DNA of 35,289 nt from a virus: UHGV virus genome UHGV-0114939. One strand, written 5' to 3'. Under the pieces are notes generated by a model, which was given only the letters and a program-made list of their open reading frames with translations, searched no databases and was not told the DNA's origin. A program made the translations under genes and the position numbers. The number at the start of each line of letters is the position of its first letter. Position 1 is the stretch's first letter. Of the stretch, positions 1 to 15,624 are shown piece after piece.

Positions 1-2
1 GC

Positions 3-191: not shown

Positions 192-726
192 GAGCCTGCA
201 ATCTGTCGTTAATGTTGTTCAGGTCGTAAACCCGGCGTTCAATATCCAGCATCAGGAAATCGTGGATCTCGGCCTGTTCAGGATTATCAGACTCTCTGGC
301 CTGTAAGAGCAATTCATTGTAACCATGCAAACCACCCGAATTTTCCGCCGGGGTAGTGCCCTTCCCGCGCAAACAGCTAACAGGCTGGATACTGGTATCA
401 TGTGTTTGCTTCTCCAGCACAACAAGGCAATCCCACCAGTCGCCAAAGTCATACGTGTAAACCAGCTTGTCACCCTCATTCTGGAGCGCCGCCCATAGTG
501 GCGTGATTGCCGCGTTACCCATGCTTTCATCCTCACCCCATACGCGATACTCGCTACCTGGATCACCTTTACGCCCTTTCTCGAACATATACAGGTGTTC
601 GTCATTCCAGCCAAAAGCTAACTGGATCACGGCATGAAGTTTACTAAAGGGGATTTGCTCTGGAACCAGCACACGCCGCCATATTGGTGGTTTGCTGTCT
701 CGGATGGTTATCTTTATCTGGTACAT
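184..726 (-). CDS. pRiA4b ORF-3-like domain protein (function unknown)
   Basis: ATG at 726. N-terminus MYQIKITIRDSKPPIWRRVLVPEQIPFSKLHAVIQLAFGWNDEHLYMF matches the hallmark of the plasmid pRiA4b ORF-3-like family (recognised from memory, no search run). Confidence 0.65.
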   Translation of the reverse strand: MYQIKITIRDSKPPIWRRVLVPEQIPFSKLHAVIQLAFGWNDEHLYMFEKGRKGDPGSEYRVWGEDESMGNAAITPLWAALQNEGDKLVYTYDFGDWWDCLVVLEKQTHDTSIQPVSCLRGKGTTPAENSGGLHGYNELLLQARESDNPEQAEIHDFLMLDIERRVYDLNNINDRLQALN

Positions 727-769
727 GCGTCGTGAACCAATAGTGTACGTTTAGGTGGGTATTTTTCTG

Positions 770-1204
770 CTACTGACCAGGATAGAGCTGATGTGCCGGG
801 TCAAGCCAGACAATATGGAATACATTACCGATGAAAAATCCATGTATGCGACCATATTCATTGCGCGATATGGCAAATTGATAAGGTGTATAACTCTGAA
901 ACTGTTCATTCAAATGCTGAAATCCCTTAGGTTCAGATGTAGTTTGCCAATCAATCGGATGTGACTTCAACGAACCACCGCGATCGGTGGTGAACTCTCG
1001 TTCAGTCATAGTGGAAAGGTCTTTGAGGCGGTCTAACACCTTGCAAAAATAAACAGGATTCTGAGCGCTGAAAGTAAATTTCTCATGCGCCGCATCGATA
1101 TACCGAAAAGAAAAGTTGATGGTCGTTATGCCTGAACCTGTTCCCCCAGGCACTATTTTTGTTTGCGAGGGTGCAATCTTCGACGCCCTGATTCTTTTCG
1201 CCAT
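770..1204 (-). CDS. hypothetical protein; putative toxin partner of the Panacea-domain gene
   Basis: ATG at 1204 lies 2 nt after the TAA of 1207..1662, with no Shine-Dalgarno, implying translational coupling. C-terminus RIHGFFIGNVFHIVWLDPAHQLYP loosely resembles the terminal beta-strands of RelE/ParE-fold toxins; N-terminus has a Gly-rich stretch (GGTGSG). Confidence 0.55.
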   Translation of the reverse strand: MAKRIRASKIAPSQTKIVPGGTGSGITTINFSFRYIDAAHEKFTFSAQNPVYFCKVLDRLKDLSTMTEREFTTDRGGSLKSHPIDWQTTSEPKGFQHLNEQFQSYTPYQFAISRNEYGRIHGFFIGNVFHIVWLDPAHQLYPGQ

Positions 1205-1206
1205 AT

Positions 1207-1662
1207 TTAGGAAGCCATCGAACGATAAAACTCAGCCGTTACACTTTTATCAATAACATTCTTGCACGGCGCATCTGATGGAACCCCTTCACGGGCCTCC
1301 AGCCACGGCTTTTCTTGGTGCGTCATCTGCTCCAGCTCATAAGCTGTATAACCGCCAAATACCTCATAGATTTCCTTTAGATGCTTTGACACATTCGCAG
1401 GTAACTCAGGGCAGGCAATCTCTTCGTCTATTGAGCGCCATTTGTAATCTGCAAATCTGGTATACAAATCTCTGGCTACAGGGCCATGTACCCATGCTTC
1501 AAACTTGTCAGCAACCAGTTCTTCGCCATCATTCAGCGCCATGAACCAAGCATCAGCATAGAACACCATTTTTTGCAGTTTCAGCGGCGTCATAACATCC
1601 CCATGCTCTTGAGCAAAGCAAAGCAGGTAATCCGCTACGCTGTTAAGGGTTGTAACTGCCAT
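1207..1662 (-). CDS. Panacea (DUF4065) domain protein, antitoxin-like
   Basis: Start moved to the internal ATG at 1662 (Met78 of track ORF 1207..1893), which is preceded by a GGAG RBS. Sequence MAVTTLNSVADYLLCFAQEHGDVMTPLKLQKMVFYADAWFMAL is typical of Panacea/SocA-like antitoxin domains. Confidence 0.65.
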   Translation of the reverse strand: MAVTTLNSVADYLLCFAQEHGDVMTPLKLQKMVFYADAWFMALNDGEELVADKFEAWVHGPVARDLYTRFADYKWRSIDEEIACPELPANVSKHLKEIYEVFGGYTAYELEQMTHQEKPWLEAREGVPSDAPCKNVIDKSVTAEFYRSMAS

Positions 1663-1983
1663 TATCCAATCTCCTGCCGTATGTTTTCGTCTATAACTGT
1701 CCACTACCGTTAATAATCGCATATAACCACGGGTATTGCCCATCGTAAAATGCCATTTAAAGATTCTGCGTGATGGCTCACCATCCACCGCGCAAGATAC
1801 CCGGTGCGTTTGGCTGATAATCCGCAATTTGGTTGAAACCGTCCTGGAAACCTCAAGTTTGGAAACCAGCGACTTGCATCGTAGCTTTGCCATTCGGCGG
1901 TCATAGTTACTGCTATATCCCTTTATTGGCGAGACCTGCGAGAGGTTTTGTTGTTCGAATATATAAAGGTGAATAAAGGTAAT

Positions 1984-2169
1984 CTACCTGCGCGGCGCAG
2001 GCTTCTTCCACTGGTAGGCGGGTGATCGCATCATTTCGCGAAATTTGTCACGCCGGGCTATATTGGCATTAACTGAGCGTTCTATCTCCCGTTGATCTGC
2101 CGGGGTTAGCTGGTGGCCTTCGTGCTCCAGTTTGGCGGTGGTCAATAAAGCTATTTCGCGTGGTGTCAT
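1984..2169 (-). CDS. hypothetical small protein
   Basis: 61-aa ORF with ATG at 2169 and a GAGGG RBS upstream; basic C-terminus; no recognisable family. Confidence 0.45.
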   Translation of the reverse strand: MTPREIALLTTAKLEHEGHQLTPADQREIERSVNANIARRDKFREMMRSPAYQWKKPAPRR

Positions 2170-2396
2170 ACGTCATACCCTCTGGAAGGATGAAACACGC
2201 CCGGATTAAATTTCATTTTTCGCGGGTATAAAAAAACGATGGGGCGGGCAGTCCCGGATAGTCAGGGCTGTAGAGATTTGACTACCCCCTCCCCACTGGA
2301 TTCAGGTTACTGCTATTCCGTTAAGCGCTGCTTACGGGGATAGCTGCGTTGTGATTTTGACCATTCAGGTCGCCGCTATTTCCTCACCGATTGGGT

Positions 2397-2430
2397 GCTA
2401 CGCGCACGCGTACTTGTCCCGAAATACCAG
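2397..2430. promoter_or_regulatory. palindrome-containing repeat motif, copy 1 (GCTACGCGCACGCGTACTTGTCCCGAAATACCAG)
   Basis: Shares core GCTACGCGC(G)CGTACTTGTC..AAATA.CAG with 3789-3820 and 4076-4102. Confidence 0.4.
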
Positions 2431-2466
2431 AAACCGCCAGCCAGAGGATGATTTCCCTCTGGTGGT

Positions 2467-2748
2467 CTACCTTTGCCTCTTGCCGCCATTTAACCGGAAG
2501 GCGTTACCGTTCGGTTGCGCTATCCCCATGCGGTGTTGCGTTTCGGTAACAGCTTTATGCAGGTCGCCAAATTCCTCAACCTTCACGGGCGGGCGCTTCA
2601 CGTTCTCCAGACACGTTTCACGGCGGCGCTTTATCCATTCCCGATCATCGTCCTCGCTGCATAACAGCATGACTTCCATCCATCGTGCGGCAGCTCTCCG
2701 GTATAGCCCTTTTGACTCCAGCTCTTCAGCTTTCCTGTCCCTTATCAT
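2467..2748 (-). CDS. PerC-family transcriptional activator-like protein
   Basis: ATG at 2748 with GAGAGG RBS. N-terminus MIRDRKAEELESKGLYRRAAARWMEVM resembles the conserved PerC/Pch N-terminal signature (from memory). 93 aa. Confidence 0.5.
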   Translation of the reverse strand: MIRDRKAEELESKGLYRRAAARWMEVMLLCSEDDDREWIKRRRETCLENVKRPPVKVEEFGDLHKAVTETQHRMGIAQPNGNAFRLNGGKRQR

Positions 2749-2780
2749 TTCTGCCTCTCAGATTATATAGATAAGCAAAA

Positions 2781-2910
2781 AGGTGTTGGTTCAGTTGGTT
2801 CAGTTGGTTCAATTTGTAAAGATCGTTGTTTTTATTATGTTTTTCCTAAAATATTGAACCAACATCAACTCATTTTGAACCAACACAGCCCAGCTCTGAA
2901 CCAACAACAC
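2781..2910. repeat. iteron cluster 1: 3 tandem GTTGGTTCA (2785-2811) plus 3 TGAACCAAC at 21-bp spacing (2855, 2876, 2897)
   Basis: Direct reading. 2781-2821 is a perfect reverse complement of 11027-11067. Confidence 0.8.
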
Positions 2911-3007
2911 AGCGATAGCTTTGTGATTGGCCCGTTATTTTCTGGCTGATATTTGAGCGTATAACAGTGTTATACAGTGATATACTGTATGGATATTACT
3001 CACTGAT

Positions 3008-3463
3008 ATGGTCTTTGCAATGAGCAAATCTAATCTGGTCGCGTTCCGCATCCCATCTGAATTGCAGGATGAGTTTAATCGGTCTGTTCTCGCTTCTGGA
3101 GGGGATAAAACCTCCTGGCTTGTTGATGCGATTCGCATGAAGCTGGGACAGCCGGAAAAGTCTATTGATTCACGAATGCTTGGGCTCGTGGAGCGCATGG
3201 AAAAAGCTGCTGCGTCGCTTATTGCCGGAAAGCCGAACATCCCACCAAAGCCATATAACGAAACGGCAGTTATAAAGATCATTGCCGATACCATCCGACA
3301 GGGATTTGATAATGGGCGTGTGATAGCTGAACGGATCAATGAAGCAGGCTATCAAACAAAAGCTGGTAAAGCGTGGGATAAAGATATTTACAGCGCGTGG
3401 AAGCGTCAGGGAAGCAATGCTGAAAAGTTAAAAGCGGTGATTGATTGTAAGGTCAGCGTATAA
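3008..3463 (+). CDS. hypothetical protein, possible ribbon-helix-helix DNA-binding N-terminus
   Basis: ATG at 3008 (alternative ATG at 3020). N-terminal SNLVAFRIPSELQDEFNRSV has a beta-strand/helix pattern like RHH regulators. Operator-like palindrome TACAGT-GATAT-ACTGTA at 2973-2989 lies just upstream. Confidence 0.5.
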   Translation: MVFAMSKSNLVAFRIPSELQDEFNRSVLASGGDKTSWLVDAIRMKLGQPEKSIDSRMLGLVERMEKAAASLIAGKPNIPPKPYNETAVIKIIADTIRQGFDNGRVIAERINEAGYQTKAGKAWDKDIYSAWKRQGSNAEKLKAVIDCKVSV

Positions 3464-3542
3464 ACATGAGTGCCCATTGGAAAGCTGCTTGGGCCAATAC
3501 CTTTATACACCAGCAGGTGGTGACGATAGGTGAGGATCAGGA

Positions 3543-3764
3543 ATGAAAGGCAGAACGCCACACATTGAACATCAAGCCAACCACTTCTCGGATGTTCGCA
3601 ATGAGATGATTGCCATTCGCGGTGATATGCACGGCTTGGAGCGTCGAATTATTGATAAGATTGATGAAAATAGAGATAAGGCCAGTGAAAATCAAAAGTG
3701 GATCATCGGCCTGTTGATTTTATCAATTCTTATCCCGCTACTTATCGCATTGGTCACAAAATGA
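3543..3764 (+). CDS. XhlA-like small membrane protein (coiled coil plus C-terminal transmembrane helix)
   Basis: ATG at 3543 with GAGGA RBS. 73 aa ending in hydrophobic WIIGLLILSILIPLLIALV; architecture like phage XhlA/holin-associated proteins. Confidence 0.5.
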   Translation: MKGRTPHIEHQANHFSDVRNEMIAIRGDMHGLERRIIDKIDENRDKASENQKWIIGLLILSILIPLLIALVTK

Positions 3765-3788
3765 ATATCCAATGTGTATGCTGTCGAT

Positions 3789-3820
3789 GCTACGCGCGCG
3801 TACTTGTCGCAAAATATCAG
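3789..3820. promoter_or_regulatory. palindrome-containing repeat motif, copy 2 (contains perfect palindrome TACGCGCGCGTA)
   Basis: GCTACGCGCGCGTACTTGTCGCAAAATATCAG; see copies at 2397 and 4076. Confidence 0.4.
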
Positions 3821-4075
3821 GCAAAGGCCAGATTCAGAACGTCGTGATAACCACCAGCACAACATGAGATGTCATGTAACGCGATTTATCACGTCAGATA
3901 CATGTGATTGGTGTACCCGCATAAAACATTGTCATAGCGCGTCCTGTGCGCATATACGCCGATAATCAACACATCACCACCACTCTGTCTCATGTAGAGA
4001 ACACTTTTATGGTATCCCCCGCCATCGTGTGCGTACTGGTCGGACGCAGTTGCAAAAAATTTTGCAACTGATACC

Positions 4076-4102
4076 CCTCGCGCGCGTACTTGTCTCGAAA
4101 TT
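4076..4102. promoter_or_regulatory. palindrome-containing repeat motif, copy 3
   Basis: CCTCGCGCGCGTACTTGTCTCGAAATT. Partial copies GCGTACTGGTC at 4031-4041 and GCGCGTACTGT at 4162-4172. Near-palindrome CAGTTGC-A6T4-GCAACTG at 4048-4070. Confidence 0.4.
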
Positions 4103-4275
4103 GGTGTTTTGCTGTGGCAGTGATATCAGAAAAATCTTCCTGTTTCACATAAAGCGGATATGCGCGTACTGTAACGGCCCCATCAACTGGGAGCGGATTT
4201 GAGCCCCGAATGTGTAGGCAATGTCACTTAACGTTTGTCGCATACCTTCCAGAAAAAGCGATTCATGAATAATAG

Positions 4276-4300
4276 GGGCATGAATGCCCGGCGTACCGGG
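4276..4300. terminator. putative bidirectional intrinsic terminator (overlapping palindromes GGGCATGAATGCCC and CCCGGCGTACCGGG)
   Basis: GC-rich palindromes immediately 3' of the lipoprotein stop (4309), with T-rich tracts on both strands. Confidence 0.4.
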
Positions 4301-4308
4301 CTTATTAG

Positions 4309-5007
4309 TTAATTTGGTGCTTTAGGGTCAACATTAAAAGTTATATCACCTTCTGTATTTTTCCCGGCATAGCTAGCGGCTATTCTCGCCAACCCTTTGT
4401 AATCAGCAATTCCATCAGACTGTTGCGAGACGACTGAGCTACCAACTTTCCATAACATATTAATCTGCCGATTATTGAGATAAGCCTTGGCATCAAACGA
4501 CTGGAGTATCACCCCTGCGCCGTAGAACGTGTCCGTCACAGTTGTGTTATACGCGCCAGTAATTCCATAAGTAGGCGTATAAACTGTTGTTGCCGTTCCA
4601 GTGGTATTAGCTGTACCGTAGCCACCACCATAACTATTGAACGTGGTGTTCGAGTTTCCGTACGTTGTTGCTGAGCTCACACCAGTTTGCCCGTATATTG
4701 GGATGGTTACATTACGAGTATTTGAAATGGCCCCGCTTCTCAAAAAGTTCAAGAGAATTACCTGGTCAGCCAATTTTTCATCTTTAACTTGTGTATATCC
4801 TTGGCTTGATAAACTGGCGGCTACTACCGTAGCTATTTGAGTGTATTCAATCTGTTTGGTGTTCCAAAGTTCTTGGCTTGCGGGGATGATCAAGAACTTC
4901 TTACCGACAGATTGCCCGGAAGATAAAGCATTGACCGTTACTAACGGTTTTTGTACGCATCCAGCCAATAATGACAGGGATAATATTAAAAGAAGATTTT
5001 TAATCAT
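4309..5007 (-). CDS. lipoprotein (Thr/Gly/Tyr/Asn-rich), function unknown
   Basis: ATG at 5007 with AGGTGAG RBS. Signal peptide with lipobox MIKNLLLILSLSLLAG|C. Mature part rich in TTYGNSNTT / YGGGYG repeats. Confidence 0.75.
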   Translation of the reverse strand: MIKNLLLILSLSLLAGCVQKPLVTVNALSSGQSVGKKFLIIPASQELWNTKQIEYTQIATVVAASLSSQGYTQVKDEKLADQVILLNFLRSGAISNTRNVTIPIYGQTGVSSATTYGNSNTTFNSYGGGYGTANTTGTATTVYTPTYGITGAYNTTVTDTFYGAGVILQSFDAKAYLNNRQINMLWKVGSSVVSQQSDGIADYKGLARIAASYAGKNTEGDITFNVDPKAPN

Positions 5008-5157
5008 GATAATCTCACCTAAGAATTGCGTGGTTATAAATTATCATCACTGTAAGCGAATGTAAGCCACAGGCTCGTAATGTGATATGGAATTTTGATA
5101 GTTGGCTCAATATCAGTATGCCGTCCTTGGCTATTATGGTTTTGTTAGTTAGAGCGT

Positions 5158-7884
5158 CTATTCCCATTCGCTAACATCTTTCATGCCACTGAGGGTAGCT
5201 ACAATCCCGGCCCTTGTCAGTTTCACGAATTCTTCAGCCCCAACGGCATCACGAATTGCTTTCATGGCAATTTTATTGGCCGAAAATCGTTTCTCTGCTG
5301 CGGCGATCGCTGCTGGTGATGCCCCTGCGCGCACTGCTTTTGTAGCTTCCTGAACGGCTTTCTCTATCGCATATCGACCACTTCTTGTCGCCCCAATCTT
5401 AGCCACAGCATTTCTTAGCGCGCCACCAGCAACCAAACCACTAATCGAACCAATTACACCACCGCCAAAGCCTCCAGCGATCGCACCTGACTGTTGAACA
5501 CCGTTCATAATCACGCCGACGATCTTTGGAAGGCCTGAATCGAGCGTTTTGAGAGCCTCAGTTGTTCTTCCCGTGCGCTCTACGTATCGCTGCGGTCTGG
5601 TACTGGCTTTAGCGAGTACACCGAACTCTTTCATCATTCTACCGAGATCTGGCGCATGACGACTGATGGCGTTTACATTCTGCTGGGTCATGAGCTTGGC
5701 AAAATACTGGATACCTGACTCTTCACCGATTCCTCCCTTCTCTCCCTGCGCCACAGCATGCTGAAGAATAGATGCTATTGCAGGTTGGCGTTCTGCTTCC
5801 GGCAGCGCGGAGATAAGACGGTGAAAAGCTCCCGTTCCAGTGTTTGCGGATGCCTTAAGCGTATCGGCACCTTTTCTTACCATAGCGTCTGATGCGAGAT
5901 CTCGACCAAAAACAGATTCGGCATTTTGTTTGGCGATAATGTAACTTTTAGAGAGATCGTTAGCTTTCTGCCATTCTGTGAGGAAGTTTCCTTTTTCAGC
6001 CATGATGCGCATGTCATCAGTGATAGCTCTGCGCATTTCTCCGGCAATCCGGGCGGCATTGGCCTTACCTGCCCGGGTGTTTGCTTGTTCAGCATCAGCA
6101 AACTTAGCACGCCATGCCTTCATCCCGTCGAAGGTTATGCCGCCACCTTGGTTGTTGGCAGCCTGAAACTGTTTCATCTCCGGGCTGAGTGGAACATTGG
6201 CTGCTTTTTCTGCTTGGACGACAGCCATCCCATTACTCATTTTCATCCTTTCGCGTGGCATCGTGCTTCGCAGTTCTGCCCATGCCATATTCTCTGCTGT
6301 TTTCATATCACTGAGGCTCGCGATGATGCGCTCTTTAATTGCTGCGCTTTTTTCTGATGCGCTTCCAGACTCAGCACCGAAATCAGACAACTGCTTATTC
6401 AACTTTGAGGATATTTCATTGAAGGCCGTAAGGTGAGCATCCTGAACATTCCCAGGAGTTGATGCCAGAACACCTTCTGCTTGGGCAATTCCACGACTAC
6501 CTGAGCGCATTCCAGGCGTCAGGGTGTTGATATTAATACCAGTGATTTTCGCCGCCTTAGCGACATCATCTCTGACGTTTGATGCCTGCGATGCGATATG
6601 CTCTCGGCCTACGGCAGAACGCGCTGCTTTCGATACATCATTGGCGGTTTCCAGAGTATTTGCTGCCCCTAACACATGGCCTGATTGATTTGTATTACTC
6701 CGCAATACATCTCGCATTACGTCACTGGCTGTCTGTCCGCTCTTTATTAAAGCGCGTGCTCCTAGCGATCCTGCTAGGCCAATACCTGTCTCTTTTGCTA
6801 GGTCTTCTGGGCTGATCTGCCCGTTCTTTTGGGCGTTCACCAATGTACCTGGCAGGTTTTCTGCCAACATACTAGCCACCTTTGTGGCCGCACGTTCAGC
6901 ACGTGGAGCGTTGGCAACTGAAGAAGCTGCGGTAGCTGCCTTTCCTGCACCTAATCCTGTAATAAGGTAAGGTGCTAGCTGCTCACCAGCCTGCGCGTAT
7001 GGATCTGTAGGTTGGTCTACTGGGCGAAAGACAGGTGATATGGGCGTGTATGTGCCATCACCCACACCAAGCTTCTGAGCTGCCCATGCTCCGGCTGATT
7101 GCGCCGCATTGACTACCCCCACGCCTGCGTCCATTACATCAAACGGTATATTAGCAATCCCTCTGGCCATCTGCTCTGGCGCAGCTTTCAGCCCTGGCGA
7201 AAGATATTCCATCTCAGGATTAAGGTTAGACTTGGCTACTTGCTGCTGCGGTTCCCCGGCATTTTCATCGGCGAGAAACTGAGCTCTTTTCTGCTCCCAT
7301 GAACTGGCTGTTGGTAGTCCTGCTTCTATGTTCTTAAATTGCTGACGTTTTGCTTCCCATGCAGAAATATCTCCCACCTGAGAGATTTCTTTATCAAGCT
7401 CTGAGTAGTCAGGCTGCTGAAGATTGCGATGTTGACTGGTTTGTGCAAACTGCAAGATTTCACTGTCATCAGGGATTATTCCGGCATCTGCAAATTTACT
7501 TACGTAATTAGCCGTTTCATCTGGCAGTGTAGATTTACCGTTTCTGACGGCATTAATACGAGCATAGCCAGAATTATACCCAGCCAATGCCATACCTATA
7601 TCACCAAATCGCTTCATTCCTTTATTGAGATGGTTTGCTGCGATATCCATTTGCTTTTCAAATGGCAGTGAGCGCGGATCTGTTCCACGATAACCAGCAT
7701 CACTCATTACTGAGGGCATCAGTTGAGCAAATCCTCTAGCTCCTTTCGGTGACTCGGCACTTCCGTTACCACTAGATTCATTGCCAACTAATGTTTCCAT
7801 CGTCCCTGATGGGAAACCATATTTTTCATCGAGATGACGGGAATAGGCTTTCTGTTTTTCTGTCAGTTGTGCCATCATTGCCAT
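5158..7884 (-). CDS. phage internal virion / DNA-ejection-like protein with N-terminal lytic transglycosylase (SLT) domain
   Basis: 908 aa. N-terminus has SLT motifs (ETLVGNESSGNG...GFAQLMPS...ALAGYNSGYARI); the rest is Ala/Gln-rich and helical. Start overlaps the upstream gene by 10 nt. Confidence 0.8.
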   Translation of the reverse strand: MAMMAQLTEKQKAYSRHLDEKYGFPSGTMETLVGNESSGNGSAESPKGARGFAQLMPSVMSDAGYRGTDPRSLPFEKQMDIAANHLNKGMKRFGDIGMALAGYNSGYARINAVRNGKSTLPDETANYVSKFADAGIIPDDSEILQFAQTSQHRNLQQPDYSELDKEISQVGDISAWEAKRQQFKNIEAGLPTASSWEQKRAQFLADENAGEPQQQVAKSNLNPEMEYLSPGLKAAPEQMARGIANIPFDVMDAGVGVVNAAQSAGAWAAQKLGVGDGTYTPISPVFRPVDQPTDPYAQAGEQLAPYLITGLGAGKAATAASSVANAPRAERAATKVASMLAENLPGTLVNAQKNGQISPEDLAKETGIGLAGSLGARALIKSGQTASDVMRDVLRSNTNQSGHVLGAANTLETANDVSKAARSAVGREHIASQASNVRDDVAKAAKITGININTLTPGMRSGSRGIAQAEGVLASTPGNVQDAHLTAFNEISSKLNKQLSDFGAESGSASEKSAAIKERIIASLSDMKTAENMAWAELRSTMPRERMKMSNGMAVVQAEKAANVPLSPEMKQFQAANNQGGGITFDGMKAWRAKFADAEQANTRAGKANAARIAGEMRRAITDDMRIMAEKGNFLTEWQKANDLSKSYIIAKQNAESVFGRDLASDAMVRKGADTLKASANTGTGAFHRLISALPEAERQPAIASILQHAVAQGEKGGIGEESGIQYFAKLMTQQNVNAISRHAPDLGRMMKEFGVLAKASTRPQRYVERTGRTTEALKTLDSGLPKIVGVIMNGVQQSGAIAGGFGGGVIGSISGLVAGGALRNAVAKIGATRSGRYAIEKAVQEATKAVRAGASPAAIAAAEKRFSANKIAMKAIRDAVGAEEFVKLTRAGIVATLSGMKDVSEWE

Positions 7885-9194
7885 CCCTTAAGTTTTGCCT
7901 GATAGTAACTTTCCGGCAGATAGCCATGTGCGGTCACATAATCCTTAACCAGTGAAGGATCCTGCAACAGCATTTTGGTATCAGTTTCTTCGTCCTTAGA
8001 TTTGGTTACAGGAATACCGAGCCCGGCAATCTGTCGTTTCTGCATTCGAATAATTACGTCCTGCGCTTTATTCAACTCTCGCAAAAATGCCTCATTGCTG
8101 GTTGCTGACTTAATGCCATTTTGAGATTGCATAAGGGCAGCCCTTTCCCCTTCGGTTGGGTTAGAGCCAAAAGTCCCTTTGAGGCTAGGCAGAATAACCT
8201 TTAGGTTGTATTCATCAGCTTTGGCGCGTAGGCTTCGTGTGTCTTCTGCTACATCAGGAAGGAATCCAAACCCCAGCGTCAGGGGGTTATAGTTCTGCGA
8301 GCGGGTAACGGCCGAAGGATGTTTCCCTACAATTCCCGCCAGTTCATGACCCACTTCAAGCGCAGAGTTCAAGGAGTCGATGTTACCTGCAACAGTATTA
8401 ATTTTATCGTTCATCTTCTCCACTTTCGCCTGCTGTATCTTGCTCAGTTCAGCATTGAGCTTGTCTCTCTCGATGTCATTTTGAGCACGTCCAAGTCGTG
8501 CTTTCAGAACCATTTCTCTCGTGCGTAGTTGGTTATCGGATAGGACTTTGAACTGCTCCATATCGAGACGTCGATTACCCTGTTCCGCATTAACCTGAGC
8601 ATTATATGCGGATGTATCTGCGTTCTGCTGTGCAATGCTCTGCCCTTGCTGCTTCTCTTGAACACTAAAGTAACTATTTGGATCAGCATGGAGGTGGATG
8701 AGGTCAGTGATTCTGTTGAATTCCTGTGGGTCATTCTGCCAAGACTGATAAACCTCTTCAGCAGGAAGACCAAATCGCTGTAATACTGGATTTGCCTGCT
8801 GAATGGCCTTCTGCATGGTCAGTGGATCTCCAGTTTGTGACGCAAGACGCAGATTCATGGCAGCGTCAGCGGTCTGTCGATTTTGCTCAGCATCAATGAA
8901 TCCCATCTGTTTTTGAGAATCAGCCATAAACTGGGGATACTGGGCCATTAACTTCTGCACGCCAACACGATCATTATTAGCTACCGCACTACCCAACCGT
9001 GCCTGATATTCTTTTAACTGCTGGGAAATTTGCGCCTGCTGATTAATCTCAGCAACGCCTCTTAGCCCCTGTAGCGCCATTAAACCTACGTTTGGCTGCT
9101 GCTGATACTGCACAGGCTGAGGAACGGAAGAACGAGGAGCATTATCATTTTGCGGTGCCATGCTAGGCAGCCCGCCAAGTTGCCATGTCGCCAT
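7875..9194 (-). CDS. phage internal virion / ejection-like protein (Gln-rich)
   Basis: 439 aa; ATG at 9194 overlaps the stop of the upstream gene. Size and position match the middle ejection protein of podovirus modules (P22 gp20 / T7 gp15-like position). Confidence 0.65.
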   Translation of the reverse strand: MATWQLGGLPSMAPQNDNAPRSSVPQPVQYQQQPNVGLMALQGLRGVAEINQQAQISQQLKEYQARLGSAVANNDRVGVQKLMAQYPQFMADSQKQMGFIDAEQNRQTADAAMNLRLASQTGDPLTMQKAIQQANPVLQRFGLPAEEVYQSWQNDPQEFNRITDLIHLHADPNSYFSVQEKQQGQSIAQQNADTSAYNAQVNAEQGNRRLDMEQFKVLSDNQLRTREMVLKARLGRAQNDIERDKLNAELSKIQQAKVEKMNDKINTVAGNIDSLNSALEVGHELAGIVGKHPSAVTRSQNYNPLTLGFGFLPDVAEDTRSLRAKADEYNLKVILPSLKGTFGSNPTEGERAALMQSQNGIKSATSNEAFLRELNKAQDVIIRMQKRQIAGLGIPVTKSKDEETDTKMLLQDPSLVKDYVTAHGYLPESYYQAKLKGWQ

Positions 9195-9871
9195 TAGAAT
9201 CCAAGCCCCCCAACAAGACCAATAAGCCCACCACCAATAGCGCCGGCCGCAGTTCCTATTCCAGGAACAACGGAACCAAGTTGCGCACCCGCTAAAGCGC
9301 CTGATGCTGCCCCACCAATACCACGCGCAAGACTGGATGGCTGCTGCGCCTGACCTGCACGAATAGCGCCAAGCCCCTGCAAGAGTTGTCCGGTATTATT
9401 GGCGTAGTTTTGCCCTGCCGTTGCCTGCCCTGATGCCGCATTCATCCCGACATTTAGCAGGTTTCCATAATTTTGCATTTGCCCACTGAGCCAATTGTTA
9501 TAAAGCATGGGCGCAATGGAAGATAACTGGTTACTGGTAGCTGTTGAGCCAAGCCCCCCGGTAGCTTCTGCTGAGACAAGGTTCTGATAACGGGCCTGAT
9601 CTGCCTGTGTTTTATATAAACCAGAACCAAAGAAATCATTCGCGGCTTTATTCTGCCCTTCCAGAGTCATCAGTCCTTGTAGTTGTTGTAAAGCAGGCAA
9701 TCCGACTTCTGCATACGGCTTGAGATTATTCATCACCGTATTCCACTGCTCGCGCTGCAAATCAATTGCCTGCTGCTGGGCCTTCGCCTGAGCTTTAGAG
9801 GCACCACCATCACCGCCTTTTTCGTATACGGCACGATTGAGATGTTTATGAGCTATGTGGGTAATTAACAT
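9194..9871 (-). CDS. phage internal virion / ejection-like protein with glycine-zipper C-terminus
   Basis: 225 aa; ATG at 9871 with AAGGAA RBS. C-terminus GAQLGSVVPGIGTAAGAIGGGLIGLVGGLGF; size similar to P22 gp7. Confidence 0.6.
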   Translation of the reverse strand: MLITHIAHKHLNRAVYEKGGDGGASKAQAKAQQQAIDLQREQWNTVMNNLKPYAEVGLPALQQLQGLMTLEGQNKAANDFFGSGLYKTQADQARYQNLVSAEATGGLGSTATSNQLSSIAPMLYNNWLSGQMQNYGNLLNVGMNAASGQATAGQNYANNTGQLLQGLGAIRAGQAQQPSSLARGIGGAASGALAGAQLGSVVPGIGTAAGAIGGGLIGLVGGLGF

Positions 9872-10326
9872 TCGCTGAATTCCTTATATTGTTGCCGAGT
9901 TAACTGATAAAGCGTTACGCCGACGGGTTTACCACATCTGATATAAGCATCATCAAGGTGACCAACACGGGTAGCGCCAAGCAAACGGATAATTGCCCGT
10001 CCGTATTTGGTGGTGTCAGGAACCATGGTAATGCTGTTAAGGAATGGTGAGTTTTCGAGAAGCCATTTGCAGAATAATCGATGCCCTTGCAGTGCATATT
10101 CACCACGGAATCCGGGGTCGTACACCGCATGGCATTCAACAACGCTATGCCAGAAGTTACGCACTTCATGAACGCCAGCCAGCACTAATCCTTCGTAGAT
10201 GCCGAGATATACCGCATCAGGCTTGATGTAGTACGTGTGCCCCGGCTCAACAATATTTTCGGTATTGCCTGGCTCGTTAAGAAAGGCCTGTAATCGCACA
10301 GGGTTATCAATAAATTTTAGTTCCAT
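9865..10326 (-). CDS. hypothetical phage protein, first large gene of the ejection-like module
   Basis: 153 aa; ATG at 10326; 7-nt overlap with the next gene. Confidence 0.6.
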   Translation of the reverse strand: MELKFIDNPVRLQAFLNEPGNTENIVEPGHTYYIKPDAVYLGIYEGLVLAGVHEVRNFWHSVVECHAVYDPGFRGEYALQGHRLFCKWLLENSPFLNSITMVPDTTKYGRAIIRLLGATRVGHLDDAYIRCGKPVGVTLYQLTRQQYKEFSEC

Positions 10327-10342
10327 GCGATGCCATCCATTT

Positions 10343-10504
10343 TCACATACAGCCTGCCAGCGCCTTATCTATTAACCCTCGTGCAATTTCATGCAGAGTT
10401 GGCGCTACTCCAATTCCTGATTTTTTACGCTGCTCTTCCTGAATTTTCTTTATCGCTTCCATTTGCTTCTCACTTATCAATACCGGCTTTACTGAAATAG
10501 CCAT
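10343..10504 (-). CDS. small (53 aa) putative ribbon-helix-helix DNA-binding protein, below the ORF-track threshold
   Basis: Hand-translated: ATG at 10504 preceded by AAGGGGG; MAISVKPVLISEKQMEAIKKIQEEQRKKSGIGVAPTLHEIARGLIDKALAGCM; stop TGA at 10343-10345, 16 nt before the 153-aa gene start. Confidence 0.5.
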   Translation of the reverse strand: MAISVKPVLISEKQMEAIKKIQEEQRKKSGIGVAPTLHEIARGLIDKALAGCM

Positions 10505-10597
10505 AACGCCCCCTTAGAACTGTATAAAACAACAGTTATTATAGTTTCACAAATCGCAATATTCATCATCGTAATTGCAAAATATGAAACAAATAGC

Positions 10598-10630
10598 ACA
10601 AAAAAATGCCACCGCTCAGTAGCTGGTGGC
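10598..10630 (-). terminator. rho-independent terminator downstream of the primase gene
   Basis: Minus strand reads GCCACCAGCTACTGAGCGGTGGC followed by a 7-nt T run (hairpin 10608-10630, A run 10600-10606 on plus). Confidence 0.55.
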
Positions 10631-10948
10631 ATCGTTCTGTGTGTCAGGTTTTGACAGGTTTTTTATGGACTCTAAAAACTATATTTATGGTGTCGCATTA
10701 CTCTTCACGGCAGGCGCTTTTCAGTTCTGCCCTTGCTTCTGGCTCCATTGGTAATTTGATTCGCGATCAGCTATGCGGATGGTTTGCTGAACAGGCATAA
10801 CAACTTCTCAGAGGCTGTTTTTTGAACTACGAAAATTTCGTAGTGCTCACTTTCAAAAACGTCACGCCCTTGTACACAGGATTTTACGAAAGTCTCGTAA
10901 AACACTCTCTGATGCCAGCCAGGTGTTGTGCGCATCAATTCAGTCACA

Positions 10949-11067
10949 TTGTGTTGGTTCAAAATACCGTGTTGTTGGTTCAGTGTTGGTTCAATAAAAA
11001 GAATAAAATCCTTATAAAACAATACTCTTTACAAATTGAACCAACTGAACCAACTGAACCAACACCT
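10949..11067. repeat. iteron cluster 2: GTTGGTTCA at 10953, 10974, 10985 and 3 tandem TGAACCAAC at 11037-11063; mirror image of cluster 1
   Basis: 11027-11067 is an exact reverse complement of 2781-2821. Sits 22 bp 3' of the primase-helicase gene, like the P4 crr/ori repeats bound by alpha. Confidence 0.8.
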
Positions 11068-11088
11068 TTTCTACGCACATGAAGAAGC

Positions 11089-13848
11089 TCATTCTTCAGA
11101 TGAGTTATAATCTCCTGGCTGGTAATTGAGTACATAAACGTTTATTTGTCGTCCCTGAATACGTGGTGATTTTCTTTGGTATCCACGACCGCTGTTTGGT
11201 GGGGTTAGCATCCCGGCTTTTTTCAACACTTCAGCAAACTGTTTTGCGTTGAAACCACATGCGATCTCCTTTTCAAATGTGGCCGGGAATGTGTAGAAAA
11301 TCATTGGGCTTTCGTCATGTTCTCCACGCTGACGGTATCCGGCTAAATCTTTGATGGGCAAATCTGCCGGGCTGTATGGAAATGGTGCAAAACGGCTAAG
11401 CCCATAGGCATTAAGAAATGCCTCCGTTTGTTCAATAATCTGCTGATGCTCTTTGTTACCTGTGCCGAACTCACGCAACCATGCGTTATAGCTGTGCTGT
11501 ATCGCATCACGGCATGTCTGAGCATCCCAGCCTGTTACAACCTCGCCTAACAACAATGCGGCCTCCAGAATGGCAAATCGCGCGGCTACACGGTGAACCT
11601 GCTCACCATAATCGGATGGGATCAGGCTTCTCCATCTGCTTTCGCAATCACGAACGGTTTTAATAGCCTGTTGCTGGTGGTCTGCCAGCCATTTAATCCA
11701 CTCACGCCCGGACGCGCCGTGGTGATGCTGGTAAGCGTCTTTCAGTGCGTCTGCGTGCTGTTTTCCGTTCTGGTAATCGTGAAAGCGTACTGCTTTACTC
11801 AACGGAATATTCAGCAGTCGCACCAGTTGCCCGGCTTTGGTTTTTCGCCCGGAAGTAGCGATAAATGTTTCTAAATCCATTTCTCCGGTGCTGATTGCCA
11901 CTGTACGCCAACGTTTTAGATCCCGGTTTCCACCATCTTTAGCGCCTTGCAGTTTCCCTACACCGTTAAATAACGCATAGGCAGACTGTGAAACGCTGAC
12001 AGGATCAGCGCCCTGACCAACTTCATCAAGCGGCATTAGTCCGTCATTGTGGGCGGCGGCCTCATTTGCCAGCCCCAGCGCGGTTCCGTACCACGTCAGC
12101 CGCAGTAAATCAGGGTTGCCGTATAAGCTGCTCGCCACGTTTGCCGTGGTGGTCTTACCTGCGCTCGACTGCTCATAGAAATGAATGCCGAACCCGTCAG
12201 CGCCCACCAGCCCAATCAATGGCGCTGCCAGTGCTGCGCCGATCCCGGTCATCATTGAATAGTTACCAAAGGCCAGACGCGCCACGTTATCACGCCAGCT
12301 TTTCGCGCTCCCTGAGACGGTATATCCGGCTGCGGCTGAGCTTCTCCCGCTGAACAGCACAGGATTTTCAGGTGTTCCGATGATTTCCCCATCAGGCATG
12401 ATGTACGCTCCGCATTGCCAGCCAGTGGCATGAGCAACACGCCACAATTCACGAGAGCCACTGCGTTGTAGCCAGTCTGCCAGTATTGCTCTGAGGCTGC
12501 TTTTGGTCGTGACATTTACCCCACCAGCTTTAAGTGTGCGCCATCCTTCACGTTCACCAATATCAGCCAGTGGAATGGCAGCGGTTGTCGGCGTTTCAGA
12601 ACCAAACGACAGCCAGCGAAGAATGAGATACTGGTCTTTATCGTCTCTGCCAGTACCGATAACGCTTAACGGAGAACATAACCAGCTTTCGTTATTGATG
12701 ATTTCTCCACTCTGGCTGTCAGCTCTCGGAGATACCCAATAAATACCATCCTCGCGGCTTTCTATTCTTGGTTTCAGTGGGTCGGTATCCATAACCTTAA
12801 AATCGCTTCCCTCAATGGTCTGTGGCTCCTGTTTCACGCCATTACCCTGTGGTTGGTACATTGACTTATTGAACGCTTCTGTGGCGCATTTAATGCCGTG
12901 TTTTTGGTGGTAATCATTCCAGTCTGCTTTGTGATCTGTCGGGGGTAATGCCACCCATCCAGAAACAGATAAAGCTGCTTTTTCTGCTGCTATTCTCCCC
13001 GTGTTTTGTCTTCCTTCGCTGTGGTCGTTATCCGCAGCAATGATGATTTGTGCTGAAGGAAATTTATCCCGCAGTACCTGGGCGACATATAACAGGTTCC
13101 CGGCATCAATCGCCGCCACTGTCAGCGCCTCTGGACGAATTAAATGGGCAGATAATGCCGTTGCCAGCCCTTCTGCGATTAAGATGCTCTGTGTTGTTTC
13201 TGGTGCGTTTATGGCGTGATATGCCCCTCGCTTTGCCGAACCTGTCAGGAGTCTTTTTTCACCATGTGAGGTAATAGTCTGTGCTGCTGTGACTGCGCCG
13301 GATTTATCCACCAGCGCCAGCAACAGAGATCCATCGGGCAACACGGGGAATGTAAAATCACCTACCCCTTTCGCAACCAGATAATCAGATTTGCCGTTTA
13401 CAGCCTTTCTGCGCATGTCATCAAACTGACGGGAAAACGTATCCCGTCTTTGTTGTTCGTCCTTCTCTGCCCTTTTCAGGCGCTCCTGTTCGCGTCGCTG
13501 GCGCTCGGTTTCCAGTTGTTCCCGTTTCTGGCTGGTGGCTTCTGGTGTTTCCGTTGTCCGGTAATCAATACCCAGAACATCAGCGGCAAGAAGCGCCGCC
13601 TCTGTTGTGTCGCAGTTATTTACGCGTTTAATTAAATCCAGCCCATCACCAGCGCCGCACTGATTACAGATGAAGCTACCGCGCCCGTTGTCGTCGAACC
13701 GGAATCGATCTTTGCCCCCACATGCAGGGCAGGGAGCATGACGGCGCGGAGAGTCAGGGACATTTATGTTCAGGCAGCCCAGCACATGAGGCCAGTTGTT
13801 TTCAGACGCACTGATAACCTGACGGATAAGATCAATGTTTCGCATCAC
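11089..13848 (-). CDS. P4-alpha-like primase-helicase (zinc ribbon + Toprim + DUF927-type NTPase)
   Basis: Zinc ribbon CPACGG...FICNQCG; Toprim acidic motif IIAADNDH; Walker A YEQSSAGKTTT. Track start at 13848 is a GTG; an ATG follows at 13845. Confidence 0.85.
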   Translation of the reverse strand: MMRNIDLIRQVISASENNWPHVLGCLNINVPDSPRRHAPCPACGGKDRFRFDDNGRGSFICNQCGAGDGLDLIKRVNNCDTTEAALLAADVLGIDYRTTETPEATSQKREQLETERQRREQERLKRAEKDEQQRRDTFSRQFDDMRRKAVNGKSDYLVAKGVGDFTFPVLPDGSLLLALVDKSGAVTAAQTITSHGEKRLLTGSAKRGAYHAINAPETTQSILIAEGLATALSAHLIRPEALTVAAIDAGNLLYVAQVLRDKFPSAQIIIAADNDHSEGRQNTGRIAAEKAALSVSGWVALPPTDHKADWNDYHQKHGIKCATEAFNKSMYQPQGNGVKQEPQTIEGSDFKVMDTDPLKPRIESREDGIYWVSPRADSQSGEIINNESWLCSPLSVIGTGRDDKDQYLILRWLSFGSETPTTAAIPLADIGEREGWRTLKAGGVNVTTKSSLRAILADWLQRSGSRELWRVAHATGWQCGAYIMPDGEIIGTPENPVLFSGRSSAAAGYTVSGSAKSWRDNVARLAFGNYSMMTGIGAALAAPLIGLVGADGFGIHFYEQSSAGKTTTANVASSLYGNPDLLRLTWYGTALGLANEAAAHNDGLMPLDEVGQGADPVSVSQSAYALFNGVGKLQGAKDGGNRDLKRWRTVAISTGEMDLETFIATSGRKTKAGQLVRLLNIPLSKAVRFHDYQNGKQHADALKDAYQHHHGASGREWIKWLADHQQQAIKTVRDCESRWRSLIPSDYGEQVHRVAARFAILEAALLLGEVVTGWDAQTCRDAIQHSYNAWLREFGTGNKEHQQIIEQTEAFLNAYGLSRFAPFPYSPADLPIKDLAGYRQRGEHDESPMIFYTFPATFEKEIACGFNAKQFAEVLKKAGMLTPPNSGRGYQRKSPRIQGRQINVYVLNYQPGDYNSSEE

Positions 13849-14203
13849 CGTACCCCACGTGGTCTATAGCGTTTGCGATATGGCTAACCAGCATCTGCCA
13901 CTTGGTTATTCCGTAATCAGTCAGCATGCCATCATTGTTTAGCCACATATCAAATTCAGCGGTTGTCGCAAGTTTCCACTTATCGCCGTGGGCAGTCCTC
14001 ATTGCTGGGTACATGAATGCGCAAATCAGATCACAAACATCTGACGGCTTCAGAGATGTAGTAATGATGCGTCCCTCTGGCGTCTGAATTGCCATTTTCT
14101 CTTCACCAGTAGAATGAAGGTTATGAATCCACACAGCACCAGCAATCTTTGCCACCTGCTCTCCGATTGCGGAGCTAAGCGCCATTTCTGCATTTTCACG
14201 CAT
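13832..14203 (-). CDS. hypothetical protein
   Basis: ATG at 14203 with GGGAGG RBS; overlaps neighbours by 8 and 17 nt (translational coupling). Confidence 0.6.
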   Translation of the reverse strand: MRENAEMALSSAIGEQVAKIAGAVWIHNLHSTGEEKMAIQTPEGRIITTSLKPSDVCDLICAFMYPAMRTAHGDKWKLATTAEFDMWLNNDGMLTDYGITKWQMLVSHIANAIDHVGYGDAKH

Positions 14204-14537
14204 GAGAACCTCCCGCTACAGTTGCGCCCATGTCATTAACCATGCTTTGCCATATCTCACGCCCGACGTCAGTCAATCCGTCCTTAGTGACGCAACGATC
14301 AAGAAGCTCGATCCCCACGGTTTCCCACTGCGGGTAGAACACTTTCATGGCTGCCAGTGTGTAGCTATCGATCAGGCTGCGAACGCCTTTTACTCCATTG
14401 ACGATTTCCACGCGGACGGCCTCGCCGTCCGCATCAACCATGAAATAGTCCCCGCCGCTGGTGGAGGTAATGTGGTTATACAGTGCCGACGCATACTTAT
14501 TTGCCAGCGCATTCAGTCGGAAATTTTTAGTAATCAT
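14196..14537 (-). CDS. hypothetical protein
   Basis: ATG at 14537 with GAGGA RBS; 113 aa. Confidence 0.6.
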   Translation of the reverse strand: MITKNFRLNALANKYASALYNHITSTSGGDYFMVDADGEAVRVEIVNGVKGVRSLIDSYTLAAMKVFYPQWETVGIELLDRCVTKDGLTDVGREIWQSMVNDMGATVAGGSHA

Positions 14538-14547
14538 GGTTCCATCC

Positions 14548-15150
14548 TCAGTGCGTCACTGGTTCCGCTGGCATGCCGTTTTCATTCAGTTCAGCTATAA
14601 AGCTGTTGTGAAGTTCAGCAAGCGTTTCACGACCAAATGGAGTCAGTGCTCCTTGTTCCACATCCATCATGGCTCTGTAGAAAATGATGGCGCGTTCTGT
14701 GCCAGACTCGATGCCAAAACGTTCTATCATCGCGCCCTCAATGTTGTTTGCCATAGCGAGGCGCTCTGCTACTGGATACAGCGGCATGGCGACGATGCCG
14801 TTGGAATAAACAGCCACTTCGGAAGGGTTGCCAGTATCATCAATGATGCTGACAGTGCCGTTTTCCTCTCTCATTTCCAGCATGAATACTGTTGCGATCA
14901 GCCATCTCCACATAATGACGTTATGCTGTGATGTGTAATCGAAATATCCCTGGTTGCCGCCATCGGCTATAGCGAGATGTATTGACATACCTTCATCTGG
15001 TTTATCGTCATAATCCCCGGCATCCAGACGATTTACGGCATCAATATATGAGACGGCCTCAACGCGTTCTGTCATGCCATCGTTGCTGCGGTACATGATG
15101 TTTACGCCGTCAGGCGTTGCTTCTGTATGGAAAGTTAAGAAATTATTCAT
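14548..15150 (-). CDS. hypothetical protein
   Basis: Start moved to the internal ATG at 15150 (Met36 of the track ORF), giving an 8-nt overlap with the upstream gene instead of a 113-nt overlap. Confidence 0.55.
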   Translation of the reverse strand: MNNFLTFHTEATPDGVNIMYRSNDGMTERVEAVSYIDAVNRLDAGDYDDKPDEGMSIHLAIADGGNQGYFDYTSQHNVIMWRWLIATVFMLEMREENGTVSIIDDTGNPSEVAVYSNGIVAMPLYPVAERLAMANNIEGAMIERFGIESGTERAIIFYRAMMDVEQGALTPFGRETLAELHNSFIAELNENGMPAEPVTH

Positions 15151-15364
15151 GTTTCGCCTCGCCTGAATGATTCTGTAACTCATATTTGCCCAACAATTCG
15201 TCTGCTTCCTGAATAGCTTCTGGTACGCCATTGAGCAGTGACATAACCGCGCCAATCATTAACTTGTCTCTGTTGCTGGGGCTGGCCCCTTCAAGCCAGA
15301 ACCCTAAAACAGTCTGAACCTGTTCGATGCGACATTGTGCTTCAATGAGCTGGATGTTGGTCAT
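15143..15364 (-). CDS. hypothetical small protein
   Basis: ATG at 15364 with GGAGAG RBS; ATGA overlap with the upstream gene. Confidence 0.55.
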   Translation of the reverse strand: MTNIQLIEAQCRIEQVQTVLGFWLEGASPSNRDKLMIGAVMSLLNGVPEAIQEADELLGKYELQNHSGEAKHE

Positions 15365-15624
15365 TTCGCACTCTCCGCATCGATTAAACTGATATCTATC
15401 AGAGAGGTAACTTTTTGTAGCCAGCTAGTGATTACTGTCGCCTGTTCCCCTCCCACCGATGGAAGAATCTCATTCATCACATGAACCAGACCTGTGCGCG
15501 CCCTGGTAAGCCGTTCAGTCGTGCGATCTGCAAGAGTGAATGTGTCTGGATATGGCTCTTCACGGCTCAGCAATGATTCAATTTCCAGCTCACACGGATG
15601 ACGATAAATTAAGTTGATATTCAT
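15361..15624 (-). CDS. hypothetical small protein
   Basis: ATG at 15624; ATGA overlap with the upstream gene. Confidence 0.55.
   Translation of the reverse strand: MNINLIYRHPCELEIESLLSREEPYPDTFTLADRTTERLTRARTGLVHVMNEILPSVGGEQATVITSWLQKVTSLIDISLIDAESAK

Follow-up and report, generated by a model that had tools for sequence, protein, structure and literature searches.

A predicted P22-type ejection-protein operon carried by a phage-inducible chromosomal island of the EcCIMP1 type

The window in this study is a 35,289-nucleotide (nt) stretch of a virus genome (UHGV-0114939), in which positions 5158–10504 contain five co-directional open reading frames (ORFs) on the minus strand. They form a predicted operon encoding homologues of the ejection proteins of phage P22, and are located in a phage satellite with an integrase and a primase, denoted here as element A. 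An initial annotation made from the sequence alone had described these five ORFs, and the ORF list confirmed them at the stated coordinates. In the direction of transcription they are as follows.

10343–10504, minus strand: leader ORF, 53 amino acids (aa), first gene of the operon, satellite-specific, with a strong Shine-Dalgarno sequence (AAGGGGG)
9865–10326, minus strand: gp14 homologue, 153 aa; DUF2824, the P22 gene 14 family labeled "head morphogenesis" (Pfam, 1.5e-61), and phrog_651 (1e-66)
9194–9871, minus strand: gp7 homologue, 225 aa; P22_gp7 (Pfam, 6.6e-73) and phrog_598
7875–9194, minus strand: gp20 homologue, 439 aa; Inj_translocase (Pfam, 3.7e-22) and phrog_917/2534
5158–7884, minus strand: gp16 homologue, 908 aa; SLT domain and phrog_770, "DNA transfer protein"

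The Pfam and PHROG matches to the gp7, gp20, and gp16 families greatly exceed chance expectation and bear out the initial proposal of a podovirus ejection module. The lytic transglycosylase proposed for the N-terminus of the last gene was located as an SLT domain at residues 17–119 (nt 7528–7836; Pfam, 1.1e-12), as in T7 gp16, and this region also matches phrog_342, "internal virion protein with endolysin domain". Residues 189–864 of the same protein match phrog_770 (5e-121), and its homologues carry PF26808 (Phage_P22_gp16) in precomputed Pfam assignments. The SLT catalytic motifs ESS, GFAQLM, and AGYNSG are intact in the window gp16 and invariant across the satellite and phage clades, and the gp7 homologue retains a C-terminal Gly-rich hydrophobic segment (residues 205–223). 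When the ORF coordinates were compared with the P22 record, the order 14-7-20-16, co-directional and tightly coupled, was that of the P22 late operon, with neighboring genes overlapping by 7 (14/7), 1 (7/20), and 10 nt (20/16). The initial annotation had matched the gene sizes to either T7 gp13–16 or the P22 module; the P22-type set stood, but the first gene is a DUF2824 gene 14 and not a gp13-like internal-virion protein. No sequence match to PDB chains was obtained for any of the four operon proteins. Judged by sequence, the operon contains a P22-type ejection-protein module with a complete set of gp7, gp20, and gp16 homologues in P22 order. Their aa identities to the P22-like phage Kapi1 are 84% for gp14 (Kapi1_055), 58% for gp7, 26% for gp20, and 25% for gp16. 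The gp7 homologue is 56% identical to P22 gp7, and the window gp16 shares 47% identity, across the entire protein, with its counterparts in Escherichia phages Dewey and Huey. The window-type alleles of gp7, gp20, and gp16 are 25–58% identical to those of any phage found, and gp20 represents a divergent allele.

The remaining backbone of element A was assigned as follows.

10950–11062, minus strand: iteron cluster adjoining the 3′ end of the primase gene, three copies of GGTTCAGTT and then three of GAACCAAC, direct and inverted, read from the sequence
11089–13848, minus strand: primase/replicase gene, Zn-ribbon, TOPRIM, and DUF927 (Pfam; phrog_1139, 2.4e-178)
15808–16836, minus strand: Ash gene (Pfam)
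17005–17838, minus strand: AntA antirepressor gene (Pfam)
18282–18485, minus strand: AlpA gene (Pfam)
18913–20127, minus strand: P4-family tyrosine integrase gene (Pfam)
20295–20328: attachment (att) site at the right end of element A, formed by the 3′ part of tRNA-Thr and holding the published att core GATAATAGGA at 20300–20309

The iteron cluster is probably the replication origin of the satellite, since the origin usually adjoins pri-rep in phage-inducible chromosomal islands (PICIs). The left att site lies approximately 380 bp before the window start, and the att-to-att length is 20.7 kb (20,719 bp) in an identical copy (L001). A region of E. coli 24A16CRGN010 matches the window with 99.7% identity over positions 1–16319 and 98.9% over 16376–20337, where the element sits at the tRNA-Thr beside proA with ordinary chromosomal genes on its flanks. 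Pfam and PHROG searches detected no head, tail, terminase, or lysis families in the other ORFs of element A, so that the initially described integrase/AlpA/primase carrier without capsid or tail genes was upheld. The initial annotation had noted that matching head and tail genes in the adjacent genome would point to an ordinary prophage; none were found beside the element, and the complete-genome copy of element A contains none outside the stretch covered by the window either. An integrase beside the att site, AlpA, and the primase are arranged in the canonical PICI order, and the length of 20.7 kb agrees with the PICI size of approximately 10–20 kb. The ejection proteins are the sole virion-related exception in its gene content. 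No Rpp, capsid-morphogenesis, capsid-size, or packaging-redirection families were detected in element A. A P4-type backbone, as initially suggested, was not recovered. The backbone is int-alpA-antirepressor-Ash-primase. Pfam and PHROG searches of all ORFs of element A found no psu, sid, delta, or epsilon, and the P4-type label was accordingly dropped.

A near twin of element A has been described by Pick, Stadel & Raivio (ISME J 2025; PMC11773190) as EcCIMP1, a PICI of E. coli MP1 (GenBank OR778291) with a length of 19,963 bp and the att core TCCTATTATC. The window is 98.9% identical to EcCIMP1 at the nt level over window positions 3784–16319, and EcCIMP1-type elements at thrW show 98.9–99.7% nt identity to the window. 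Both elements occupy the same site, the tRNA-Thr beside proA, and share the same backbone, and their ejection proteins are 98–99.7% identical in aa sequence. The integrase, AlpA, leader-ORF, and lipoprotein accessions are common to L001 and MP1. The two differ in that MP1 is without the Panacea-domain gene and the 144-aa gene of the window, that Ash is intact in the window but truncated in MP1, and that the window-type element measures 20.7 kb against 19,963 bp in MP1. In the window, moreover, a second island is inserted between element A and the tRNA. It is nearly certain that the carrier is an EcCIMP1-type PICI, a satellite of P22-like (Lederbergvirus) phages at tRNA-Thr, and that the operon is its late operon.

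The MP1 study reported that EcCIMP1 is excised and circularized only when Kapi1 is present, that it is transduced by Kapi1, which requires its own int and alpA, and that it raises the superinfection immunity of Kapi1 lysogens to Kapi1 (PMC11773190). The helper dependence established by that study concerns EcCIMP1 itself (PMC11773190). EcCIMP1 was classed by SatelliteFinder as "Type C #var01" (PMC11773190), a class that it received because it has no packaging-redirection or capsid-morphogenesis module. The element and the presence of ejection genes in it are already known, since both were published as EcCIMP1. Our analysis adds their conservation and selection across genera, the leader gene and promoter region, the frequency in E. 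coli, the cassette exchange, and the two-gene form. Two large satellite surveys make no mention of ejection or injection proteins, and no other paper on satellite ejection proteins was found within the literature matching the terms searched. The Kapi1 genome has 39,436 bp, and the satellite (19,963–20,719 bp) is about half as long. We infer from these lengths that a Kapi1 headful would hold about two satellite copies without capsid remodeling.

The functional framework comes from published P22 genetics. All three ejection proteins gp7, gp20, and gp16 are needed for DNA delivery, and a particle missing one of the three still forms but does not bring its DNA into cells (PMC10883804). Foreign ejection sets from Sf6, L, CUS-3, and HK620 enter P22 virions and function there, with the restriction that gp16 and gp20 must share one source while gp7 is interchangeable (PMC10883804). 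The ability to evade SieA, an exclusion protein of the inner membrane, was mapped to gp16 and gp20, the pair that sets the SieA sensitivity of P22; the HK620 set has this ability (PMC10883804). These data bear on the role that the authors of the EcCIMP1 study considered. They drew the ejection genes in passing as "DNA transfer" and suggested a possible packaging role (PMC11773190), on the grounds of their position after the primase, which in other PICIs is that of the packaging genes. On this view, they would assist the packaging of satellite DNA in Kapi1 capsids. The position does match the packaging module of other E. coli PICIs (PMC11773190), and P22 gene 14 is labeled "head morphogenesis". 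However, gp7, gp20, and gp16 are ejection proteins, and the particles lacking one of them still assemble (PMC10883804). No terminase, Rpp-like, or capsid-size gene was detected in element A, either. A packaging function is hence regarded as very unlikely.

The operon was then compared between genera. The leader-gp14-gp7-gp20-SLT-gp16 operon behind a DUF927 primase is also present in Leclercia (L010), Citrobacter (L024 and L025), and a Logan assembly (L026), and no capsid or tail genes lie near any of these four loci. For the E. coli and Leclercia copies, the ratio of nonsynonymous to synonymous substitution rates (dN/dS) was 0.03 for the leader, 0.07 for gp14, 0.06 for gp7, 0.065 for gp20, and 0.08 for gp16; these ratios are approximate, since the synonymous difference (pS, 0.56–0.72) is near saturation, but purifying selection is clear. 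Homologues at least 78% identical to the 908-aa protein were satellite-borne in every context checked. Those at most 61% identical belonged to true P22-like prophages in all three contexts checked, with gp4, gp10, and the needle gene upstream and Arc/Mnt and the tailspike downstream. In the Leclercia (L010, 6719–9106) and Citrobacter (L024, 4374–7197) copies, extra genes for SSB, a ProQ/FinO-domain protein, and a 329–331-aa helix-turn-helix protein (phrog_6204) are located between the primase and the leader, accompanied in Citrobacter by PerC; the E. coli copies are without them.

These comparisons argue against reading the operon as an inert remnant left by recombination between a P22-like prophage and a satellite; a prophage remnant had been considered in the initial annotation. 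True remnants of this kind exist in E. coli, such as the gp14-gp7-gp20 fragment beside a truncated needle gene at argW in EDL933, and one satellite variant (L008, 7903–11149) contains an in-frame gp20-gp16 fusion in a 1026-aa ORF. This fusion ORF is annotated by the Prokaryotic Genome Annotation Pipeline (PGAP) as a pseudogene plus "injection protein". On the other hand, all ORFs of the operon are intact in the window, and the frames are intact in the satellite copies inspected. The operon is flanked by no needle, gp10, or tailspike fragment but by the primase and probable origin upstream and a lipoprotein gene downstream, and it possesses a dedicated conserved promoter region and leader gene. 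The remnant reading is rejected, because the dN/dS values of 0.03–0.08, the cross-genus conservation, and the satellite-only gp16 group point to a maintained operon; the selection and conservation data effectively refute it, leaving it a very slight probability.

The operon is also common. The whole window-type module was found in 72 of the 5426 complete E. coli genomes, a junction of the leader with gp14 (four-gene form) in 258, and a junction of the leader with gp20 (two-gene form, without gp14 and gp7) in 215. Provided that the two junction sets overlap little, the satellite operon is present in roughly 9% of the complete E. coli genomes. A gp7 scan of genome contigs gave at least 14 loci, one of them a satellite among the matches listed, and the distribution beyond E. 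coli rests on a few sampled contexts.

Upstream of the ejection genes, a control region precedes the leader ORF. Its features are as follows.

10538–10623, minus strand: control region containing a terminator, an inverted repeat, and a −10 element, kept across genera (alignment of six satellites from at least three genera)
10623–10608 plus a T-run, minus strand: intrinsic terminator closing the primase operon (hairpin search)
10580–10574 and 10560–10554, minus strand: inverted repeat TTGCAAT/ATTGCGA, conserved in the satellite alignment
10543–10538, minus strand: perfect −10 element TATAAT, paired with a weak −35 element

The conserved inverted repeat and the perfect TATAAT with a poor −35 suggest a separately regulated promoter for the operon, predicted to be activator-dependent. 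The leader ORF sits directly upstream of gp14 or gp20 in every satellite context inspected and is 85–91% identical in aa sequence in the Leclercia, Citrobacter, and Logan satellites, and it has no homologue among 50,697 phage records. The initial annotation had taken this ORF for a ribbon-helix-helix (RHH) regulator, which was not supported by any search. Pfam gave no match even at E ≤ 10, hhalign against Arc/Mnt gave a probability of 1%, and a Foldseek search of the model against the PDB returned nothing (E ≥ 4.9). The AlphaFold2 (AF2) model itself, with a predicted local distance difference test (pLDDT) score of 78, consists of an extended N-terminus and two helices, which is compatible with an RHH fold but not diagnostic of it. 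A search of the satellite against Kapi1 for a mimic of the pac site or a likeness of the late promoter found only the coding similarity of gp14/gp7 and a short integrase stretch.

Variation within the operon is concentrated in gp20 and gp16. Strain N12 (L006) carries a satellite at another site with another integrase, whose gp14 and gp7 are 100% identical to those of the window. Its gp20 (473 aa) and gp16 (701 aa, no SLT) are different. The match between this satellite and the window breaks off at 9034, which falls within the 5′ end of gp20, and is restored at 4202. From these breakpoints, gp20, gp16, and the downstream gene are read as one exchangeable cassette between conserved flanks. In strain E67 (L028, 6001–9750), the leader is followed by intact gp20 (488 aa) and gp16 (701 aa) without gp14 or gp7. 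The satellite subfamily with only leader-gp20-gp16, of which the fusion-bearing L008 is a variant, carries a different replicase (DUF5906).

The gene downstream of gp16 encodes a predicted lipoprotein.

4309–5007, minus strand: predicted lipoprotein gene, 232 aa, with a signal peptide and the lipobox LLAGC, directly downstream of gp16
4289–4276: terminator-like hairpin past the lipoprotein gene (hairpin search)

This gene belongs to the exchangeable gp20/gp16 cassette. A homologue is located at the same position in the Logan satellite (L026), with 93% identity over 218 aligned residues, and the accession WP_000594596.1 is common to L001 and EcCIMP1 of MP1. The lipoprotein had no family match in Pfam, PHROGs, NCBIfam, or PADLOC and no homologue in phage records, and its AF2 model, made without an alignment, was unusable (pLDDT 32). 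We regard it as a candidate superinfection-exclusion or moron gene, and as a candidate for the immunity that EcCIMP1 provides against Kapi1.

An alternative reading centers on this immunity. The ejection proteins or the downstream lipoprotein would then act in the resident cell, blocking channel formation by incoming P22-like phages. Such exclusion would explain why Kapi1 lysogens are more resistant to Kapi1 superinfection with EcCIMP1 than without it (PMC11773190), and the conserved lipoprotein gene after gp16, with possibly its own promoter, is consistent with it. Most genes on the horizontally acquired elements of MP1 are transcribed without induction, and some EcCIMP1 genes, unnamed in the paper, are up-regulated in Kapi1 lysogens (PMC12922286). 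A decoy, however, needs neither conserved SLT catalytic residues nor four full-length, strongly constrained proteins, and the literature searched yielded no case in which ejection proteins act as exclusion factors. Furthermore, the lipoprotein alone could explain the phenotype. Resident-cell exclusion is therefore considered an unlikely account of the operon.

An action of the module on DNA delivery or exclusion, as suggested in the initial annotation, remains the best hypothesis, and a specific mechanism can be proposed. When a P22-like helper is induced, the satellite would be excised and replicated, and its DNA would be packed in helper-built capsids, as seen for EcCIMP1 with Kapi1. Meanwhile, the satellite would produce its own ejection proteins, which would be co-assembled into the helper procapsids. 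After adsorption, these proteins may construct a trans-envelope channel, in which gp7 would be located in the outer membrane, gp20 would form the periplasmic tube, the SLT domain would cut the peptidoglycan, and gp16 would reach the inner membrane. The satellite would thus supply its own DNA-delivery apparatus instead of relying on that of the helper, and the critical cargo would be the co-adapted gp20/gp16 pair. A likely benefit would be that satellite DNA enters cells that exclude the ejection-protein type of the helper, such as helper lysogens; a further one would be independence from which P22-like helper is met. The satellite data fit the P22 genetics closely, in that the minimal cargo is gp20/gp16, which is swapped as a unit and is most divergent from the helper. 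With moderate confidence, we propose that the satellite ejection proteins are loaded into helper procapsids, giving the satellite particles an injection channel of their own. The identity, conservation, purifying selection, and cassette structure of the genes are observed, and from them we infer expression on induction, incorporation into virions, and a selective benefit. A broader proposal is put forward tentatively and should be regarded as doubtful. It states that widespread enterobacterial satellites replace the ejection channel of the helper, with gp20/gp16 as an exchangeable specificity cassette that would admit DNA to cells excluding the helper type, for example by SieA-like proteins.

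Several points weigh against this proposed loading of helper procapsids and its benefit. Procapsids cannot sort satellite from helper ejection proteins, leading to mixed particles, and co-expression could poison rather than help, because mismatched gp16/gp20 is non-functional in P22 (PMC10883804). EcCIMP1 leaves Kapi1 titers as they are and is itself transduced at a low level (4.8e3 particles/ml) (PMC11773190), so that the module gives no obvious large advantage in the Kapi1/EcCIMP1 pair. No recognizable homologue of P22 SieA was found in Kapi1 (tblastn) or in the window, which weakens the case for exclusion escape with the sole known helper. Deletion and fusion variants of the operon exist, including the gp20-gp16 fusion described above. 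Finally, the L006-type gp16 is 95% identical, across 604 of its 701 residues, to gp16 of a Kapi1-like prophage in strain SF-468 (L029), from which it follows that satellite and helper alleles need not always differ. The gp16 gene of the SF-468 prophage is annotated as frameshifted.

The expected mixing of the two sets may itself be the function. Other satellites lower helper spread by capsid or packaging interference. In an analogous manner, satellite gp20/gp16 would mix with the incompatible helper pair in procapsids, leaving many helper virions without a working channel and lowering the spread of the helper. P22 virions with only foreign gp16 or only foreign gp20 are indeed non-infectious, although foreign gp16 was assembled (PMC10883804). 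The satellite pair is only approximately 25% identical to that of Kapi1, and the common two-gene form holds exactly the pair that must match. Nevertheless, the Kapi1 titers from induced lysogens were unchanged by EcCIMP1 (PMC11773190), and satellite-carrying particles would be equally poisoned. Interference would, moreover, have no need of gp14 and gp7, both of which are retained in the four-gene form. We consequently assign little probability to helper interference and retain the satellite-encoded injection channel as the preferred reading.

Piracy by satellites is known for capsids, tails, and packaging specificity. If the satellite-encoded channel is real, bringing along the apparatus for injection would add another mode, one that acts at the entry to the next host and not at assembly, and the replacement of the helper's ejection channel would be a strategy not described for any satellite. 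Why a whole satellite lineage maintains its own ejection channel is a worthwhile question, which is directly testable with existing strains, because the family is common, the MP1/Kapi1/EcCIMP1 system is tractable, and P22 genetics ties gp20/gp16 to exclusion.

Other genes were noted around the operon. The accessory end of element A (184–1893, minus strand) contains a pRiA4b ORF-3 family gene, a 144-aa MAG6450-like gene, and a Panacea (SocA-like antitoxin) gene. The absence of the 144-aa and Panacea genes from EcCIMP1 of MP1 suggests that this end is a variable slot for toxin-antitoxin or defense cargo; PADLOC detected no known defense families in the accessory genes of element A. A PerC-family regulator gene is located at 2467–2748 (minus strand; phrog_994) and is annotated as PerC in L001, and in Citrobacter rodentium, LEE1 expression is reportedly silenced by the orthologue from MP1 (PMC11773190). 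Element A is adjoined by an island of approximately 14 kb at 20338–34330, denoted element B, which is bounded by 34-bp direct repeats of the 3′ half of tRNA-Thr (20295–20328 and 34290–34323). It carries a tyrosine integrase gene (20444–21646, plus strand), a DarT/NADAR-antitoxin pair (21787–23146), a homologue of the lambda-E-like major head protein (23438–24478), a DUF6945 protein, and a 713-aa protein with a tape-measure-like N-terminus. Elements A and B have the appearance of a stack of two satellites or islands at a single tRNA site. The window contains no intact tRNA, and the A+B arrangement was not found as one continuous stretch in the complete RefSeq genomes of E. coli. Just past the second tRNA-Thr repeat lies a gene for a serine resolvase/invertase (Resolvase and HTH_7; 34514–35065, minus strand), for which reason a third mobile segment may follow element B.

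The operon can be compared with several known systems. P22-like phages (P22, Kapi1, HK620, CUS-3, Sf6, and Dewey/Huey) have the same four families with the same order and translational coupling, and the SLT-gp16 fusion also occurs in real phages, as found in Dewey and Huey (47%) and in prophages of Serratia and E. coli. The surroundings are different. The module is preceded by the primase, the terminator, and the leader gene in the satellite but by gp10 and needle genes in P22-like phages, and it is followed by the lipoprotein gene in the former and by sieA/immI and the tailspike in the latter. In the T7 ejectosome, gp14, gp15, and gp16 serve as the outer-membrane pore, the periplasmic tunnel, and the inner-membrane protein with an N-terminal transglycosylase, respectively (PMC8954989). 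It is a functional analogue, in which gp7 corresponds to T7 gp14, gp20 to T7 gp15, and SLT-gp16 to T7 gp16. Sequence homology to T7 is, however, limited to the SLT domain, the first gene here is P22 gene 14 and not an equivalent of gp13, and P22-like phages, in contrast to T7, do not arrange their ejection proteins in a core stack (PMC8954989). P4-like satellites share the P4-family integrase, AlpA, and the zinc-ribbon/TOPRIM primase with element A, whereas the helper here is a P22-like podovirus instead of a P2-like myovirus, and psu, sid, delta, and epsilon were not detected. The classical enterobacterial PICIs EcCICFT073 and EcCIEDL933 and the capsid-forming PICIs likewise follow the int-alpA-primase plan, depend on a helper for induction, and encode a virion-related module after the primase. 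In this module, the classical and capsid-forming PICIs encode capsid morphogenesis and Rpp packaging redirection or whole capsids, whereas the window family encodes DNA-ejection proteins.

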